Origin: Promethearchaeota archaeon
Lineage (GTDB): Archaea; Asgardarchaeota; Hermodarchaeia; Hermodarchaeales; Hermodarchaeaceae
DNA: 64,000 nt
Assembly (NCBI GenBank): GCA_048939625.1
Contig: JBHLPH010000004.1
Span: forward strand, 1-64,000
Reading direction: 5' to 3'
Both the position numbers and the translations under genes were made by a program. Of this stretch, positions 853 to 63,560 are shown piece after piece. Position 1 is the stretch's first letter, and each line of letters begins with the position of its first letter. The notes below the pieces were generated by a model, which did not search any database, was not told where the DNA came from, and worked only from the letters and a program-made list of their open reading frames with translations.

Positions 853-1905
853 TTAGGATTTAGTCTTTTCCTTTAATGTCGCTGCAGGATCAAATGCCAA
901 TCGGAGTGGAGGTCTTGGGAACCAGCAAGCTACCCAATGTCCGGTTTCAAGTTCTTCTAAAGATGGTTCATCCTGTCGGCATTTATCTTGGGCAAATTCA
1001 CAACGAGGTGCAAATAGACACCCTGGAGGAGTGTTAATTGGGCTACCAGGTTCACCTGGTAGCACCTTGCGTTTACGTTGAATTGTTGGATCTGGTGAGG
1101 GGACAGCTGAAATTAATGCCTGGCTATAAGGATGAACAGAGCCATGAATAACTTGATCAATGGTTCCTTTTTCCATGATCTTACCAAGATACATGATTGC
1201 GATTTTATCACCGATGTAACTTGCGATAGAAAGGTCATGAGTAACGTAGATATAGGCAATGTGAAACTCACGACGAATTTTTTCAAGAAGATTGAGAATT
1301 TCGGATCGAATGGACACATCAAGCATGGAAACTGGCTCATCGGCAACAATAAATTCTGGATTCACAACAATGGCTCGAGCGATCGCCACACGCTGCCGCT
1401 GCCCACCACTAAGTTCATGAGGATAGCGAAAAGTGAACTCTTCGGGGGGGACCAACTGGACAGCCTCTAGTGCCCGAATGACTCGAGCTTCTTCATCTTC
1501 TCCGGATTTAGCGATTTTGTTCAATCGAAGAGGTTCGGCAATGGTATCATAGAGACTTAGCCGAGGATTTAGCGATGAGTAGGGATCTTGAAAAATCGTT
1601 TGCATCTTCGCCCGTAGTCGCCGAAGTTTTCGTCGACCAATTTTACTAATATCCTCTCCAGCAAACGTGACTATTCCATCGGTAGGTGTAATGAGTCCCA
1701 TAAGGAGTTTGCCAGTTGTTGTTTTTCCACAACCCGATTCTCCGGCAAGGCAATAGAGTTCCTCTGGATAGACATCTAAGTCAACGCCGTCAACGGCTTT
1801 AAGGTATACTTCACCACCGATGAGTTGTGAGAAAAAACTTGAACTTACTTGAAACCATTTTCGAAGTCCACGACATGAGATAATTGGTTCTGTTGCCTTA
1901 GACAT
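853..1905 (-). CDS. oppF: Oligopeptide ABC transporter ATP-binding protein (OppF/DppF)
   Basis: GESGCGKTT Walker A, LSGGQRQR signature, IVADEP, C-terminal PPGCLFAPRC...C...HWVAC. Start taken at ATG 1905, just after the oppD stop. Confidence 0.95.
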   Translation of the reverse strand: MSKATEPIISCRGLRKWFQVSSSFFSQLIGGEVYLKAVDGVDLDVYPEELYCLAGESGCGKTTTGKLLMGLITPTDGIVTFAGEDISKIGRRKLRRLRAKMQTIFQDPYSSLNPRLSLYDTIAEPLRLNKIAKSGEDEEARVIRALEAVQLVPPEEFTFRYPHELSGGQRQRVAIARAIVVNPEFIVADEPVSMLDVSIRSEILNLLEKIRREFHIAYIYVTHDLSIASYIGDKIAIMYLGKIMEKGTIDQVIHGSVHPYSQALISAVPSPDPTIQRKRKVLPGEPGSPINTPPGCLFAPRCEFAQDKCRQDEPSLEELETGHWVACWFPRPPLRLAFDPAATLKEKTKS

Positions 1906-1907
1906 TG

Positions 1908-2909
1908 TTAGACCTCCTGTTTTCCTGGTGACCATTTGTCATCTTTGATTCGACCAGTTGCAAGGTGGCAGGCAGCCGTATGATTTGGACTCACCTCAAG
2001 TAATGGAGGATCCTCTTTTTCACAGAGGGCTTGAGCATACATACAGCGTGGATGGAATCGACACCCGGGAGGGGGATTTAGGAGATTAGGCGGTGATCCA
2101 GGAATAGATGCCAGGGTTTGGTCGCTCGATTTCTCAATAGAGGGAATTGAAGCGATTAGCCCCTGTGCATAAGGATGCCAAGGCTTTTGGAAGATTTCTA
2201 GGACGGAGCCCGTTTCAACGATTTTCCCGGCATACATGATGATGACGTTGTTACAAGTTTCAGCTACTACCGATAGGTCGTGAGTTATTAGCATTAGTGT
2301 GATTCCTAATTCTTTGACTAGTCGTTTGAGCAATTGCATGATTTGTGCTTGAACGGTTACATCAAGAGCAGTTGTAGGTTCATCAGCAATGAGAAATTTA
2401 GGATCACAAGCAAGGGCCATTACAATCATAGCACGTTGTTTCATTCCCCCGCTAAACTCAAAGGGGTAGTGATTAACCCGATCAGGGTCCATACCAACTA
2501 GTTTGAAAAGGTCTTTGGTTTTCTCTAGTGCCGTCTCTTTATCAAGTTCTGGATCATGTTTGAGCATGGCTTCCGTTACTTGATCGCTTACCCGCAAAAT
2601 TGGATTTAGCGCGTTCATTGCCCCTTGGAAGACCATAGAGATTTCAGTCCAACGGAAGTTTCGCATCTCCTCTGGGTTTAATGTAGCCATATCTACATCA
2701 TCCAGATAGATGTGTCCTCCAATGATTTCTCCTGGTTCAGGTAACATGCGAAGAATGGCAAAGGCAACTGTGCTTTTTCCACAACCTGATTCCCCAACAA
2801 GCCCCACTGAATCGCCTGCTTTAATGTTGAATGTCACGTCTTCAACAGCTTTGCAGTCTCCACGTTGCATACAATAGTACACTACAAGATTTTCTACGCG
2901 CAATGACAT
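1908..2909 (-). CDS. oppD: Oligopeptide ABC transporter ATP-binding protein (OppD/DppD)
   Basis: GESGCGKST, FSGGMKQR, IADEPTTALDV, PPGCRFHPRC. Confidence 0.95.
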   Translation of the reverse strand: MSLRVENLVVYYCMQRGDCKAVEDVTFNIKAGDSVGLVGESGCGKSTVAFAILRMLPEPGEIIGGHIYLDDVDMATLNPEEMRNFRWTEISMVFQGAMNALNPILRVSDQVTEAMLKHDPELDKETALEKTKDLFKLVGMDPDRVNHYPFEFSGGMKQRAMIVMALACDPKFLIADEPTTALDVTVQAQIMQLLKRLVKELGITLMLITHDLSVVAETCNNVIIMYAGKIVETGSVLEIFQKPWHPYAQGLIASIPSIEKSSDQTLASIPGSPPNLLNPPPGCRFHPRCMYAQALCEKEDPPLLEVSPNHTAACHLATGRIKDDKWSPGKQEV

Positions 2910-2920
2910 TGTGTTCTCAC

Positions 2921-4432
2921 CTATAGTTTCCTAAGTCGCGGATTGAGTGCCTTATCTACAGCATACCCTATAAAGATGAAGCCCATAGAGAGCAATGCAA
3001 TACAAAGCCCAGGAGGCATAAAGAACCACCAAGCTGGGGGAATCTGCGTCAGGGCAGCCTGATTATAAGCAGCCTGTAACATTCGACCCCAAGATACAAG
3101 ATTTTGGGGTGTCAATCCAAGAAAGCTCAATCCGGCTTCAGAAAGGATCGCTCCAGAAACACCAGTAGCTAATTGAACAAAAACGATTGTCAACACATTC
3201 GGGAATACATGGCGAAAGACTAAGTAGACATCACCTGCACCAGCAGCTTTTGCTGCTTCTACATAGGCTTTTTCTTTTTCAACTAGTACTTGCGAACGAA
3301 TTACTCGGGCAGGTCCAGGCCACGCGAATAAAGCAATTACAAAGACTGTGATTCCTAGACTTGGACTCAGAATTGCAGATAATATCATCATGACAGGTAG
3401 TGTTGGCATGATGATAAAGAAATCCGTTACTCGCATTGCAGCCTCATCGACCGCGCCTCCAAAGTACCCAGCAGCGAGACCAAGGATTAGCCCAACTGCT
3501 ACACCAATAAACGTGGCGACAATTCCTATAAAAAGTGAAACTTGGGCCCCCCAGAATAGTTGGGCCATAACATCTTGCCCTCTATCTGTTGTACCTAATG
3601 AGCCCCAAAAATGGCTATAGCCCCAGACTTGTATATCATCAGACCATAGACTCACTGTCCCAACCTGGTCTTTATTGACTTCACCCTGCCGGAATTCCAT
3701 AAAAACACGAATAGTAATTTCCTGACCTGGTTGGAATGCCCTAGTCATTACTTGACTAGTCAGGATGTTTGTATATGTCTGCCAGTTTCGAGGAAAGGTT
3801 GGAACAAGCCGAAAGGTGTATTGGCCCGGTGTAACGATGGGATCATCAAGGTTTTCATTTACAATTCTATAATAAATCAACACTGCATTATCTGTCAAAT
3901 TCCCGGATATATCGACCTGTGATGTGAAATAAACATAGGCCAATGCCGGAGGTATATGTTCCCACGTAAAGGTTATATCAGCATATATGCCTTGTCCGAA
4001 ATATGTTTCATTATTTGAATCATCGGTAAGCTGCAGAACCAATGATCGATTTGCACCTGTTATGCTGCCAGTAAAATCGGTAGTATCATAATACCAAGAA
4101 GCTTGTGGAGATGAGGCATTCACTGTCCAAGAGGTATCGAGATCAAAGAATGGATCAGGTACAAAGTTTTGGCCAGGGGGATAATCAATGCGGTTTCCTA
4201 AATCACCTGGAGAGGTCCATGACATCCATTGGGGAGCTGCAAAATCTGGACCCACCCGTACTAACACTCCCGGGTACAATGGGAATAAGGTTGGAGCGAG
4301 TAAAGCCATGAAAAAAAACCAAACCACAACTAAAATTCCAAAAAGCCCTTGTTTTACTTCTCGATACCGCTTCCAAACACCTTGTGCACGTTCAAATATT
4401 GAAAGCCGGTGTTTGAATCCTCTTTCACTCAT
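2921..4432 (-). CDS. oppC: Oligopeptide ABC permease OppC with large inserted extracellular domain
   Basis: LGTTDRGQDV, GAQVSLFIG, EAA loop YVEAAKAAGA, LSEAGLSFLGL, NPRLR end. About 200 extra hydrophilic residues follow TM1. Confidence 0.93.
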   Translation of the reverse strand: MSERGFKHRLSIFERAQGVWKRYREVKQGLFGILVVVWFFFMALLAPTLFPLYPGVLVRVGPDFAAPQWMSWTSPGDLGNRIDYPPGQNFVPDPFFDLDTSWTVNASSPQASWYYDTTDFTGSITGANRSLVLQLTDDSNNETYFGQGIYADITFTWEHIPPALAYVYFTSQVDISGNLTDNAVLIYYRIVNENLDDPIVTPGQYTFRLVPTFPRNWQTYTNILTSQVMTRAFQPGQEITIRVFMEFRQGEVNKDQVGTVSLWSDDIQVWGYSHFWGSLGTTDRGQDVMAQLFWGAQVSLFIGIVATFIGVAVGLILGLAAGYFGGAVDEAAMRVTDFFIIMPTLPVMMILSAILSPSLGITVFVIALFAWPGPARVIRSQVLVEKEKAYVEAAKAAGAGDVYLVFRHVFPNVLTIVFVQLATGVSGAILSEAGLSFLGLTPQNLVSWGRMLQAAYNQAALTQIPPAWWFFMPPGLCIALLSMGFIFIGYAVDKALNPRLRKL

Positions 4433-59049: not shown

Positions 59050-60609
59050 ATGCCTTCTGACGTGATAAAAAAGAAAATGAAGGAGCTCAACAAGCGCCTA
59101 GATAAAGCTCACCAAGGTGGCGGAAAAGAGCGGATTGAGAAGCAACATAAAACCGGAAAAATGACTGCCCGGGAACGGATTGACCGATTGCTGGATTCGG
59201 GGAGTTTTATGGAATTCGATGCCCTTGTCGAACATCGGTGCACAGAATTCAAAATGGACAAAAACAAAATCCCCGGTGATGGCGTCGTTACAGGCTACGG
59301 TACAATCGATGACCGTCTAGTGTTTGTTTTTAGCCAGGATTTCACCGTGTTTGGCGGAGCACTTGGCGAGATGTTCGGTGAAAAAGTCACCAAGATTATG
59401 GATCTCGCCCTTGAGGCAGGTGCACCCGTCATTGGATTGAATGATTCAGGCGGTGCACGGATTCAGGAAGGCGTAGCTAGCCTTGGGGCATATGGAGAGA
59501 TCTTTTATCGAAACGTTATTGCTTCTGGTGTTATTCCACAAATAAGCGCCATTATGGGACCCTGTGCGGGAGGTGCCGTGTATAGCCCTGCGGTCACTGA
59601 TTTTACGCTGATGGTAAAAAACACAAGCCGCATGTTTATCACAGGACCTAATGTCATCAAAGCCGTAACCGGTGAAGTCATTTCTTTTGAAGAACTGGGT
59701 GGAGCCATGGCACACAACATCAAAAGCGGTGTTGCACAATTTGCCGCAGAAAATGAGGAACATTGTCTCCAACTAATTCGCGACCTGCTATCCTATCTAC
59801 CATCTAACAACGTGGAAGATCCCCCTTATGTTGAACCTACCGATGACCCCCGACGGACGGACCCAGCGTTAAATGAACTACTTCCAGATGATACAACCAC
59901 GCCCTACAATATGAAGCAAGCCATTCTAAGTGTGGCGGATAACCACCAATTCTTGGAGGTCCATGAACACTTTGCTCAGAACATGGTAGTAGGCTTCATC
60001 CGCCTAAATGGTCATCCAGTGGGTGTGGTGGCAAACCAACCAAATTATCTGGCTGGAACCTTAGACATCAATGCGTCGGACAAATGTGCACGGTTTGTCC
60101 GGTTCTGTGATGCGTTTAATATTCCAGTCCTTACCTTTATGGATGTGCCAGGCTTTCTTCCAGGTGTAGATCAGGAACATCGCGGAATCATTCGACACGG
60201 AGCTAAGATTCTTTTTGCATATGCAGAGGCAACAGTGCCTAAGGTGACAGTGATTACCCGGAAAGCTATTGGAGGTGCGTATGTTGTGTTAGGATCTAAA
60301 CATCTTCGAGCAGATGTTGTCTATGCTTGGCCAACTACCGAAATGGCAGTTATGGGTCCTGAAGGCGCAGCGAATATTATTTTCCGTCGTGAAATCGAAA
60401 AATCCAAGGATCCAGAGGCGACCCGCGCTAAACGAATTCAGGAATACCGTGAACGCTTTGCGAATCCCTATTCGGGTGCAGTACGAGGATTCATCGATGA
60501 GGTCATTGAGCCTGCCATTACGCGGTCCCGTGTTATTGCAGCCCTTGAGATGCTGCGGACAAAACGCCAAGTGTTACCCAGAAAGAAGCATGGGAATTGT
60601 CCCCTCTAG
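59050..60609 (+). CDS. Acyl-CoA carboxyltransferase (PccB/MmdA/transcarboxylase 12S-like)
   Basis: [56 protein letters not shown]. Confidence 0.95.
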
Positions 60610-60732
60610 CGACAATTAACTAAAATTCAATATATCGCAGAGGATTTCAGACTCTACATAAGCTTATAACTCAGCCCTATGAAGGGAGTACAATACACCC
60701 CCGGCAGAGCTAGGGCGCTTCGGGAGAAATAC

Positions 60733-61293
60733 ATGATGAAATGTCCTCATTGTGGTGCAACTGTTAAAGAATTTGATACCTTTTGCTATGCCTGTGGCGC
60801 TGCCCTCGATTCAACTGAAAGTGAATTGGGAAAACCAGTAAGCAAAGCTGAGGAATTCAGCCCAGCGCCAAAGCCACCTCGATATGATTCGATGGATTTT
60901 AGTTTTGCAGGATTCTGGAAACGATTTGCCGCGTGGATAATCGATTTCATTCTTTTGTCCATCTTCGCGATTCCACTTTCCTTTATCTTGGCTTTTGTGC
61001 CTTTTCCTTGGGGATCGTTCATTTCGCTTCCGATTTCTATTTTGATTAGCCTCTTGTATTATGGGTTGCAGGAAAGCTCCGTGCATCAAGCGACCATTGG
61101 GAAACGGGCTCTCGGCATTATTGTAACAGATAATTATGGGAACCGTATAACCTTTGGTCGTGCAGCCGCCCGTGACCTTTCTAAGATTATTTCAGGTCTA
61201 ACACTTGGTATTGGCTTCTTGATCATTGGATTTACTGAGAAGAAACAAGGGCTTCACGATATGATTGTAGGTTGTCTAGTAATCAACAAGTAA
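60733..61293 (+). CDS. Zinc-ribbon + RDD family membrane protein
   Basis: CPHCG...CYACG; AGFWKRFAAWIID, QATIGKR, KKQGLHD. Confidence 0.9.
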   Translation: MMKCPHCGATVKEFDTFCYACGAALDSTESELGKPVSKAEEFSPAPKPPRYDSMDFSFAGFWKRFAAWIIDFILLSIFAIPLSFILAFVPFPWGSFISLPISILISLLYYGLQESSVHQATIGKRALGIIVTDNYGNRITFGRAAARDLSKIISGLTLGIGFLIIGFTEKKQGLHDMIVGCLVINK

Positions 61294-61444: not shown

Positions 61445-62956
61445 ATGACCACCACGGTTTCAAAACCCATCAAATTTACCGATACAACCTTTCGGGATGC
61501 ACATCAATCCTTACTCGCGACTCGTATGCGAACTGAAGATATGCTTCCGATTGCTGAGAAGATGGACAAGGTGGGCTTTAATTCCATGGAGGTCTGGGGA
61601 GGCGCCACTTTTGATGCCCCATTGCGATTCTTGAAGGAGAATCCCTGGGGGCGTCTCCGACAACTGCGAGCGGTCATCAAGAAGACGAAGCTGCAGATGT
61701 TATTAAGGGGACAAAACATTGTGGGGTATCGGCATTATCCCGATGATACCGTTCGTGAATTTGTGGAACTTGCTGCTCACAACGGCATCGATATCTTTCG
61801 CGTCTTTGACGCATTAAACGATCCTCGTAACATGAAAACAGCGTTAAAAGCAATTCACAAGGTTGGAGCACATGCCCAGCTTAGTTTTAGTTACACTATT
61901 AGCCCTGTGCATAATGTTGAATCTTTTGTAGAGCAGGCCAAGAACCTTGAAGCGATGGGAGCAGATTCAATCTGTATAAAGGATATGGCGGGTTTACTGA
62001 GTCCATTTATTGCCCGAGAACTCGTGATCCGCCTCAAAGAGGAAATCACAGTCCCGATTCAACTCCACTCCCATTATACTTCGGGCATGGCCAGTATGAG
62101 TTACCTTGAAGCAATCAAAGCTGGTGTGGATGTTGTCGATACCGCGATTTCATCCCTTGCTCAATCCACATCTCAACCCCCGCTAGAAACAATGGTTGCA
62201 GTCTTAGAAGGAACCCCATGGGACTCGCACCTAAATCTTGAGTTGCTGTCAGAAATCGCGGCTTATATCCATGATGTCCGGGAACGCTATGAAGCCTATG
62301 AATGCGGAATGGTGGGAGTTGACACGAATGTGCTACAATTTCAAGTTCCAGGTGGCATGATGTCCAACCTAATAAACCAGTTACGTGAACAAAACGCATT
62401 AGACCGTTTGCAAGATGTATTGGATGAAGTACCACGAGTACGAAAGGAAATGGGATATCCCCCGCTGGTAACCCCTTCTAGCCAGATTGTGGGCACCCAA
62501 GCGACACTGAACGTGTTATTAGGTGAACGCTACAAAACCATCCCTGAGGAAGTGAAACAGTATGTTCGTGGATATTATGGTCGCCCACCGGCCCCCATAG
62601 ATCCGAAAATTCAGAAACTCGTGATAGGTAACGAAGAACCAATTACGTGTCGTCCCGCGGATCTACTTGAACCTGCCATTCCCAAGGCACGTAAAGAGCT
62701 GAAAGGAATCACTTCCGAAATGGAAGATATCATTGCCTATATCCTATTTCCTCAACCTGCTCTCGAGTTCTTCGAACACCGTAAATCAAAGGAAGCCTTA
62801 GAGAAGCTTACACCAGAGATTTTGGCTGCAATCACGGCTGCACTCCTAGAAAAACAGCCTAACCAACCTCAAATGCCAAGTTTCCGTCGTCCAAACACAA
62901 ATGGAATTAATGCATGGGTTCTGGCAGGGCGACGAGAAGCAATGGGTTATGATTGA
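61445..62956 (+). CDS. Pyruvate/oxaloacetate carboxyltransferase (transcarboxylase 5S/OadA/PycB-like) without biotinyl domain, with epsilon/delta-like tail
   Basis: RDAHQSLLATRMR, EVWGGATFD, CIKDMAG, HSH, QVPGGM, YPPLVTPSSQIVG; tail EILAAITAAL...AWVLAGR. Confidence 0.93.
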   Translation: MTTTVSKPIKFTDTTFRDAHQSLLATRMRTEDMLPIAEKMDKVGFNSMEVWGGATFDAPLRFLKENPWGRLRQLRAVIKKTKLQMLLRGQNIVGYRHYPDDTVREFVELAAHNGIDIFRVFDALNDPRNMKTALKAIHKVGAHAQLSFSYTISPVHNVESFVEQAKNLEAMGADSICIKDMAGLLSPFIARELVIRLKEEITVPIQLHSHYTSGMASMSYLEAIKAGVDVVDTAISSLAQSTSQPPLETMVAVLEGTPWDSHLNLELLSEIAAYIHDVRERYEAYECGMVGVDTNVLQFQVPGGMMSNLINQLREQNALDRLQDVLDEVPRVRKEMGYPPLVTPSSQIVGTQATLNVLLGERYKTIPEEVKQYVRGYYGRPPAPIDPKIQKLVIGNEEPITCRPADLLEPAIPKARKELKGITSEMEDIIAYILFPQPALEFFEHRKSKEALEKLTPEILAAITAALLEKQPNQPQMPSFRRPNTNGINAWVLAGRREAMGYD

Positions 62957-62978: not shown

Positions 62979-63560
62979 GTGACACGAAAATACAAACTAA
63001 CGGTCAACAGCAAAATCGTTGACGTCGAGGTTGAGGGTCCCATCAATGGAATCCTCATTGTTACTATAGGTGAGACTTCGTTTCCCGTGCAAATTAAAGA
63101 CGGTGATACTCAATTAGAAAAATTCGATATTAAAGTAGGCAACGTTAAACACACAATTAGCCTTACACCAAATCCCAATACCTCAGAATTCACGATTAAA
63201 ATCAATAAGGAAACCTATACCGCCTTCTTAGCTAGAGAATCTGTAACACCTTCCCGAAGCATTCGAGCACCAACAATTACTACTGCTCCAACTAGCTTCA
63301 CACCCTCCACTCAGCCTTCAACGGAACCACCCCAAGAATCCGCCGAACCAGGCACAGTAACCGCCCCCTTACCGGGACGTGTTCTCGAAGTCTGTGTAAA
63401 AGAAGCGGATGTCGTCAAACTCGGCGATGTCTTGCTGGTGTTAGAAGCTATGAAAATGGCAAACGAAATTCGCGCCCCTCAAGACGGAACTGTTAAACAT
63501 ATCCATGTTGAAGCTGGAACAGCTGTAGAAAAAGGACAGCCCATGATAAGCTTCCAGTGA
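62979..63560 (+). CDS. Biotin carboxyl carrier protein (1.3S-like)
   Basis: APLPG, LEAMKMANEI biotinylation motif, Pro/Thr/Ser linker, beta-rich N-terminal domain. Confidence 0.95.
   Translation: MTRKYKLTVNSKIVDVEVEGPINGILIVTIGETSFPVQIKDGDTQLEKFDIKVGNVKHTISLTPNPNTSEFTIKINKETYTAFLARESVTPSRSIRAPTITTAPTSFTPSTQPSTEPPQESAEPGTVTAPLPGRVLEVCVKEADVVKLGDVLLVLEAMKMANEIRAPQDGTVKHIHVEAGTAVEKGQPMISFQ

Follow-up and report, generated by a model that had tools for sequence, protein, structure and literature searches.

The methylmalonyl-CoA:pyruvate transcarboxylase of Propionibacterium freudenreichii is built from a 12S carboxyltransferase (CT), a 5S CT, and a 1.3S biotin carrier. The 1.3S carrier is 123 amino acids long, and its short N-terminal peptide glues the 12S and 5S subunits together. 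To our knowledge, the joining of transcarboxylase subunits is known only for this enzyme, and we know of no structure of the holoenzyme at atomic detail. Here we consider how the subunits might be joined in an Asgard archaeon, Promethearchaeota archaeon GCA_048939625.1 (Hermodarchaeaceae), and in particular the role of the last ~50 residues of its 5S-like CT. The gene for this protein lies at 61445..62956 (+) of the window, by which we mean the whole stretch of DNA that we analyzed (the first 64,000 nucleotides of contig JBHLPH010000004.1).

In several other biotin-dependent enzymes, the parts are held together by a helix that is surrounded by β-strands. In two-subunit pyruvate carboxylase, an alanine-rich C-terminal helix is enclosed by a barrel from the linker between the CT and the biotin carboxyl carrier protein (BCCP), and either deletion of the helix or the A465R substitution abolishes the holoenzyme (PMC5059739). 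The amphipathic helix in the tail of OadG binds the association domain of OadA, which lies between the CT and biotinyl domains, and deletion of the helix releases OadA (PMC7274780). In the mycobacterial long-chain carboxylase, AccE5 has a helix inside a β-cage and a separate motif in the CT ring (bioRxiv 10.64898/2026.02.06.704326). Finally, the BT domain (named for the interaction of biotin carboxylase, or BC, with CT) has a "hook" that contacts the CT subunit: in geranyl-CoA carboxylase (GCC) and 3-methylcrotonyl-CoA carboxylase (MCC), a conserved tryptophan of the hook is buried in the CT subunit (PMC4673880), and in propionyl-CoA carboxylase (PCC), the hook stacks on the β subunit through aromatic residues (PMC10148081). 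Because the helix-in-barrel principle is already established and only its arrangement in the Asgard locus is new, we view our finding as incremental rather than surprising.

We propose that two polypeptides share a BT-type domain between them, one half of which is formed by the ~50 C-terminal residues of the 5S-like subunit. The alanine-rich helix in this tail (residues 455-469) would insert in trans into the eight-stranded barrel of the biotin carrier that is encoded 23 nucleotides downstream, and would tie the swinging biotinyl domain to the 5S subunit without a covalent bond. The stretch that ends in W-x-x-AGR-E-x-M would take the position of the BT hook and would dock the junction on the 12S-like hexamer. 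If so, the enzyme would be built like PCC, with the 5S subunit in the place of the biotin carboxylase. Taken as a whole, we consider the split BT domain to be the best explanation of the data, and we judge it to be just on the probable side.

The 5S-like protein has 503 amino acids (the stop codon is TGA at 62954-62956) and matches the Pfam families HMGL-like (PF00682, E = 5.9e-24) and PYC_OADA (PF02436, E = 4.3e-58), which reach residue 459. The Pfam scan found no biotinyl domain (Biotin_lipoyl) in it. When we compared the protein to all PDB chains with phmmer, residues 5-449 aligned to CT domains of known structure. The best match was 5ks8_C, the CT domain of a two-subunit pyruvate carboxylase (E = 1.3e-162); OadA (2nx9) and the 5S subunit from Propionibacterium (1rqb, E = 4e-136) were also aligned. 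These three alignments stop at residues 447-449, and none of the PDB alignments continues beyond residue 452, so the last ~54 residues are an appended tail. The protein terminates in precisely the residues that the first-pass annotation gave, and, as it described, the tail stands where PycB and OadA run on into a linker and a biotinyl domain. The CT domain itself (residues 1-449) is encoded by 61445..62791 (+).

The tail has three parts. First, the helix LTPEILAAITAALLE (residues 455-469, 62807..62851 (+)) is rich in alanine and is hydrophobic on all faces (ILAAITAALL); it is apparent in our 15-sequence alignment of tails (A2), in AlphaFold2 models (AF2), and in hhalign comparisons. Second, residues 470-490 (62852..62914 (+)) are a variable stretch that is rich in proline and asparagine and that contains a conserved basic pair (FRR or IRR). 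This stretch shows low conservation in A2 and in a broader alignment (A6), its length differs among Asgard families, and its predicted local distance difference test score (pLDDT) in AF2 is below 50. Third, residues 491-503, WVLAGRREAMGYD (62915..62953 (+), with W491 at 62915-62917), form the motif W-x-x-AGRRE-x-MG-x-D, which is the proposed hook; it was recognized from the alignments and from its match to MmdD-type proteins.

A tail of this kind might instead act within the 5S oligomer, by packing on its own or a neighboring 5S subunit and so contributing to the stability of the dimer or to a tetramer like that of the pyruvate carboxylase tetramerization (PT) domain. There is a precedent for this, as a passage of PMC7274780, citing Balsera 2011, states that the isolated OadG tail promotes OadA tetramers. 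However, a helix that is hydrophobic all round is what one would expect of the fully enclosed type and not of an amphipathic surface helix (a contrast that is drawn in PMC5059739), and the CT domain aligns completely to solved structures that lack the tail. We consider a role within the 5S oligomer to be quite improbable.

A search with the tail alone found it in 16 of the 18 genomes from the same family (Hermodarchaeota), at 49-88% identity, and in 0 of 382 other Asgard genomes at E = 0.01. The helix is nearly invariant in A2, which has 14 invariant columns in all, and 12 database orthologs have the tail and are all of identical length (503 amino acids). Because the tail is conserved across genomes of the family and in database proteins, it is more than a chance extension, and the expectation of the first-pass annotation that a docking tail should be found in orthologs was borne out. 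Two genomes each have two copies of the 5S tail region (G094, on contigs C4 and C5, and G108, on C63 and C66), mostly within ~450 nucleotides of where a contig ends. Assembly splits, a mixture of strains, or genuine paralogy could each explain these copies.

Proteins similar to the 5S-like subunit are also found in ~74 genomes from other Asgard families. We sampled 13 loci from two of these families (f3 and f31). All 13 encode a diverged tail, with a short alanine-rich helix, a variable stretch, and S-x-W-x-x-AGR-x-[DE]-x-M-R, and in all 13 the next gene encodes a biotin carrier with a long all-β N-terminal region. The tails from other families are only 19-30% identical to the window's tail, but the pattern of the helix persists. 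In an alignment of three Asgard families and an MmdD protein (A6), the W, G, and R of the motif are invariant, and the A and M are nearly so. In the Thorarchaeota-like family f31, most 5S tails are 83-86 amino acids long and most contain the W..AG motif twice, as in TWSDAGMSDL and TWSSAGRKDIM (L039:1954-2211, L044:1258-1515(-), L046:1267-1521(-), and others). This was seen in 11 of the 13 f3 and f31 loci (the exceptions are the short tails of L038 and L040) and suggests an internal duplication of the hook. A database search with a profile of diverse tails, limited to proteins of at least 152 amino acids, gave 67 matches. All of these have the HMGL-like and PYC_OADA domains, and all of the named ones are from Asgard archaea. 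A search for related loci with A2 returned only metagenome-assembled genomes of the Hermodarchaeota type. In the collections that we searched, the tail arrangement appears to be confined to Asgard archaea.

The conservation also bears on the idea that the tail is a leftover from a gene fusion or a gene split, with no present role in assembly. Its source might be an MmdD gene that existed earlier, or the linker of a CT-BCCP protein that was formerly a single chain. The gene boundary does fall precisely at the cut point of a single-chain CT-BT-BCCP protein, and the middle of the tail is variable. On the other hand, a leftover would not be expected to keep an invariant W, G, and R and the pattern of the helix across three Asgard families whose tails have diverged so far; the same motif is retained in bacterial MmdD proteins; and the length of the 5S-like protein is the same in 12 of 12 database orthologs. 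We consider it very improbable that the tail is a relic.

The biotin carrier (62979..63560 (+), 193 amino acids) begins 23 nucleotides after the stop codon of the 5S gene. Its N-terminal domain (roughly residues 1-88, 62979..63242 (+)) is predicted, from AF2 on an ortholog and from superposition, to have eight β-strands in four β-hairpin repeats and no helix; this is the proposed BT barrel. It is followed by a flexible linker that is rich in proline, threonine, and serine (63243..63347 (+)), as seen from its composition and a pLDDT of ~30, and by a biotinyl domain (63348..63557 (+); Biotin_lipoyl, E = 5.9e-19) with the EAMKM motif and the biotin-attachment lysine, K159, at 63453-63455. The biotinyl domain superimposes on Pyrococcus BCCP with Z = 15 and a root-mean-square deviation of 0.8-0.9 Å. 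The N-terminal domain matches PCC_BT (PF18140) at 13.9 bits (E = 0.064), which is below the gathering threshold of 23.5 bits, and hmmsearch alignments of the carrier to the α subunits of PCC and MCC begin inside this domain. When AF2 was run on the ortholog of the carrier alone, it predicted eight strands within residues 2-86 (pLDDT 81-87) and no helix. In these models, the N-terminal domain of the carrier shows the fold of a BT barrel.

In one ortholog of the locus (L007), the TGA stop codon of the 5S gene and the carrier are in the same frame. (The codon before the carrier's conserved N-terminus, TRKY..., at L007:1675-1704 is CTG and not ATG, GTG, or TTG, and after the 5S stop codon the frame stays open.) We used read-through of this stop codon to design an artificial single chain that consists of the tail, nine intergenic residues, and the carrier (P0024). 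This chain serves only as a docking test. The AF2 alignment had 27 rows, with tails and carriers mostly unpaired, and the mean pLDDT of the five models ranged from 54.6 to 68.0. AF2 predicted a helix at residues 12-25 (pLDDT ~60-73), disorder at residues 28-67 (below 50), eight strands at residues 69-153 (~80), and the biotinyl domain (~90). According to Foldseek, the best PDB matches of the model are the BT-BCCP parts of the α subunits of PCC and MCC (E = 1e-12, 250 columns). With VIA-align, residues 8..159 of this artificial fusion, whose pLDDT is moderate, superimposed on residues 518..650 of human PCC α (8zux_A), which is the whole BT domain, with Z = 13.2 and 3.7 Å over 110 aligned residues. 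The barrel region can account for at most 91 of these 110 residues, so at least 19 come from the tail.

Adding the tail also moved the start of the matched region toward the N-terminus in each of four carboxylases. For human PCC α (8xl3_A), the match starts at residue 557 with the carrier alone (166 aligned) and at residue 516 with the tail and the carrier (182 aligned). The corresponding starts are 497 (161 aligned) and 461 (189 aligned) for a bacterial PCC (8pn7_G), 549 (158 aligned) and 501 (185 aligned) for human MCC α (8j78_C), and 617 (151 aligned) and 574 (182 aligned) for a yeast acetyl-CoA carboxylase (ACC, 5csa). Because of this shift, we map the tail to the BT helix and hook and the N-terminal domain of the carrier to the barrel. 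In the superposition, the hook and strand 1 lie on either side of the gene boundary. Judging from this one artificial-fusion model and from the precedents, the helix most likely sits in the barrel of the carrier. By analogy with the BT hooks of PCC, MCC, and GCC, the W..AGR segment may contact the 12S-like subunit. Docking on the 12S would be reasonable because the tail has its invariant tryptophan in the segment equivalent to the hook and because the window's 12S shares 64% identity with the MmdA of an operon that encodes a related tail (see below).

Several points weigh against the split BT domain. The modeled chain is artificial, and the covalent linkage may favor contact between the helix and the barrel. 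Confidence is moderate for the helix (pLDDT ~60-73) and low for the hook (below 50), and the position of the helix was deduced from aligned lengths and ranges rather than from coordinates. Furthermore, the control shows no dependence on the helix, as leaving out the tail does not lower the confidence of the barrel (pLDDT 81-87). Neither a PDB profile search nor hmmsearch found sequence similarity between the tail and the helix-hook regions of the BT domains of PCC or MCC, and the contact between the hook and the 12S is proposed only by analogy. We also found no pair of 5S and carrier genes in the same frame in the f3 and f31 loci that we read, so the fusion model covers a single lineage. Lastly, with a genome that is 88% complete, it is not proven that BC, OadB, and OadG are absent.

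Relatives of the tail were identified by an exhaustive hmmsearch of a profile of 15 tails against 1.84 billion representative proteins. This gave eight matches. Six came from proteins that are long or repetitive, with 4-21 stretches matched in each, and we discarded them as low-complexity noise. The other two were clean matches of a single stretch: a fragment of an ortholog, and P0019 (127 amino acids, E = 7.9e-5). P0019 is a member of the OAD_gamma family (64.5 bits) with an N-terminal membrane helix, and its C-terminus, EELVAVVAAAIASYL..RIIRRR..AWSLAGRQETM, is common to three relatives. One of these relatives, P0021, belongs to an mmdA-D-C-B operon (L023): its gene is flanked by those for a 12S-like MmdA and a biotin carrier, and OAD_beta comes after the carrier. 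Because of this position, we identify P0021 as the delta subunit of methylmalonyl-CoA decarboxylase. When the tails were compared to four MmdD-type proteins with hhalign, the probability was 95.3% (E = 2.2e-8) over 44 columns that span the helix and W..AGR.E; the helix of the tail is aligned to the ELVAVIAA..A helix of the MmdD-type proteins, and the hook is aligned to W..AGR.E..N.

On the basis of these profile comparisons, we conclude that the tail shares ancestry with the soluble module at the C-terminus of the MmdD/OadG-type delta and gamma subunits of Na+-pumping decarboxylases. Like the MmdD subgroup, it has a C-terminal alanine-rich helix and W..AGR.E. The N-terminal transmembrane helix of OAD_gamma proteins is missing, as the tail directly follows the soluble CT domain. 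The tail would then be an MmdD/OadG-type module that lost its membrane helix and became fused to a carboxyltransferase. The window's tail has no match to the OAD_gamma model (PF04277) at E up to 10, and this model mostly covers the membrane helix.

The first-pass annotation had placed the tail among the accessory subunits that dock on carboxyltransferases and had described it as either epsilon- or delta-type. The delta-type relationship holds, by way of P0019 and the mmd operon, but the epsilon-type relationship is unproven. The window's tail touches a single Pfam family, ACC_epsilon (PF13822), which is also the only one that matched more than one of the tails. However, the window's tail scores just 13.2-13.6 bits, as compared to a cut-off of 25 (E = 0.11-0.14), and only 2-3 of 15-16 tails have even a weak match (the best E value was 0.038, for one of three members among 16 diverse tails). 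Also, ACC_epsilon proteins are free small subunits of actinobacterial acyl-CoA carboxylases that have a BC subunit, whereas the tail is fused to the 5S subunit and archaeal, and no BC was found. A comparison of the tail to profiles had been suggested as a check of its nature, and in sum, ACC_epsilon stayed below its threshold and the OAD_gamma profile had no match to the window's tail, while the profile of the tail itself established the relationship to proteins of the OAD_gamma family. The same kind of tail profile found nothing among PDB sequences at E up to 10.

L023 comes from a metagenome contig and holds a complete mmd operon, and the MmdA of this operon (1605-3251) is the protein that is 64% identical to the window's 12S-like subunit. 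If L023 is bacterial, this identity is unusually close, and it hints at a lateral transfer of the CT gene and perhaps of the tail module. The carrier of the operon (L023:3693-4124) has a single N-terminal hairpin (RKFRVVVNGITYEVEVEEV) before its linker, so enclosing the MmdD helix in a barrel would take several carriers, or strands that another subunit contributes.

These relationships also raise another explanation, which is close to what the first-pass annotation proposed: the whole tail might be an epsilon/delta-type peptide that binds the 12S-like hexamer and links 5S to 12S without involving the biotin carrier. The tail is most closely related to the delta subunits of methylmalonyl-CoA decarboxylase. 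The catalytic partner of these subunits, MmdA, is 12S-like and, in the L023 operon, is closely related to the window's 12S. The weak resemblance to ACC_epsilon points the same way, as does the anchoring of the C-terminal part of AccE5 in the CT ring (bioRxiv 10.64898/2026.02.06.704326). But in all of the precedents that have been solved or tested, the alanine-rich helix is in a β-sheet or barrel of the subunit that bears the carrier or of the BC subunit, not in the CT hexamer (PMC5059739, PMC7274780, and the AccE5 preprint). The adjacent carrier offers precisely such a barrel without a helix, and the model puts the helix there. In addition, the 5S loci of f3 and f31 have no match to 12S at E = 1e-5 in the ~0.6 kb upstream that is covered, while the carrier is always the next gene. 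So, modeling and the three structural precedents do not favor direct binding of the helix to the 12S-like core, and we think that a tail that acts on the 12S alone is unlikely. The split BT domain would reserve the 12S for the hook and would place the helix in the carrier.

The rest of the locus fits with a transcarboxylase. Within 12 kb, there are genes for a corrinoid adenosyltransferase, a methylmalonyl-CoA mutase, an epimerase-type glyoxalase protein, BirA, the 12S-like CT (59050..60609 (+), 519 amino acids; Carboxyl_trans, E = 6e-199), the 5S-like CT, and the biotin carrier. The genome, which is 88% complete, has no Carboxyl_trans gene other than the 12S-like one, and PYC_OADA likewise occurs once. 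We found no matches to Biotin_carb_C or OAD_beta in this genome, and nothing above noise for OAD_gamma. As is typical of a 5S subunit, the protein has HMGL-like and PYC_OADA domains in a chain without a biotinyl domain, a separate carrier and a 12S-type CT are encoded in the locus, and neither biotin carboxylase nor the β subunit of a Na+ pump was found. Given the single CTs, the carrier, the lack of matches to BC and OAD_beta, and the neighboring mutase, the parts list is that of a methylmalonyl-CoA:pyruvate transcarboxylase. We therefore annotate the locus, from its sequence, as encoding a biotin-dependent enzyme of this type (EC 2.1.3.1) with a 12S-like CT, a 5S-like CT, and a separate carrier. 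Some sources name the 5S-like protein "pyruvate carboxylase subunit B" or OadA. We rejected these names because it lacks a biotinyl domain and because there was no match to BC or OadB. Genes of this kind were previously noted in connection with propionate metabolism in Asgard archaea, at the level of gene lists, and propionate fermentation is thought to be ancestral in this group (PMC7015854).

Two other neighbors deserve mention. Between the 12S and 5S genes, at 60679-61293 (+), is a gene for a membrane protein of 204 amino acids that combines a zinc ribbon at its N-terminus with an RDD domain. We considered it as a membrane partner, comparable to the anchor of MmdD, but set it aside, as it lies between the 12S and 5S genes in only ~4 of 13 related loci; in the remaining loci, the 12S gene directly abuts the 5S gene. 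Just past the end of the window, 3' of the carrier gene (64074-65615 of contig C53, in L003), is a second large subunit of the methylmalonyl-CoA mutase family.

If the split BT domain is correct, then Asgard archaea would reuse the helix-in-barrel device of PCC, oxaloacetate decarboxylase, two-subunit pyruvate carboxylase, and the mycobacterial long-chain carboxylase, with its elements divided between the 5S subunit and the carrier. The conserved W..AGR.E module of MmdD-type delta subunits, for which Pfam has no model, would also gain a structural role. The finding supports annotation of these Asgard proteins as transcarboxylase subunits instead of "pyruvate carboxylase subunit B" or "oxaloacetate decarboxylase alpha". 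More broadly, Asgard transcarboxylases might be assembled like PCC, with a two-polypeptide BT domain on a 12S hexamer, and the tails of MmdD and OadG, the epsilon helix of AccE, the helix of two-subunit pyruvate carboxylase, and the tail described here might all be one portable "BT helix in trans" module that decides which subunits associate. This wider idea is tentative, and we would put it somewhat short of probable. We expect the result to be relevant mainly to enzymologists who study biotin enzymes and to annotators of Asgard metabolism.

How does the locus compare to each of the known systems? With MmdD and OadG, the tail shares the alanine-rich helix (ELVAVIAA.IA), the basic pair, and W..AGR.E. 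Unlike them, it has no N-terminal membrane helix, and instead of being a separate small protein, it is joined to a CT at the C-terminal end. Also, there was no match to the OAD_beta pump in its own genome, and the tail alone misses the PF04277 model.

As compared to the BT domains of PCC, MCC, GCC, and ACC (PCC_BT, PF18140), the predicted elements occur in the same order (helix, hook, eight-stranded barrel, linker, and biotinyl domain), the fold is the same in the model, and the proposed hook region has a conserved tryptophan, as in GCC and MCC (PMC4673880). However, in the window these elements would be split over two polypeptides at the boundary between the hook and strand 1, and they would be attached to a 5S carboxyltransferase, not to a biotin carboxylase. 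At the level of sequence, the barrel matches only weakly (E = 0.064) and the helix and hook do not match at all.

In the two-subunit pyruvate carboxylase from Methylobacillus flagellatus (5ks8), a C-terminal alanine-rich helix is enclosed in trans by strands that are adjacent to BCCP (PMC5059739), and we predict the same for the Asgard enzyme. But the helix in 5ks8 comes from the biotin carboxylase subunit, the barrel consists of two four-stranded sheets from two CT-BCCP chains, and there is no hook. In the window, it is the CT subunit that bears the helix, and all eight strands would come from a single carrier. AccE5 and PccE (ACC_epsilon, PF13822) are alike in how they work, as they are bipartite tethers with a helix in a β-cage and a separate anchor in the CT core (bioRxiv 10.64898/2026.02.06.704326), which is what we propose for the tail. 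They differ in that epsilon is a free protein, and the match of the tail to this family is below the threshold, with no sequence match for the tail in the PDB.

The transcarboxylase of P. freudenreichii has the same three catalytic parts (12S, 5S, and 1.3S), the same pathway context, and homologous CT domains in its 5S subunit, and the biotinyl domain from the window matches that of 1.3S (Z = 13.7). In contrast to the short 1.3S carrier, the Asgard carrier has 193 amino acids and includes a barrel domain, and the Asgard 5S subunit bears a helix-hook tail. As the first-pass annotation argued, it is plausible that the assembly differs from the 1.3S-bridged enzyme of Propionibacterium, and the locus suggests that Asgard archaea have a different and simple solution to the problem of joining the subunits.

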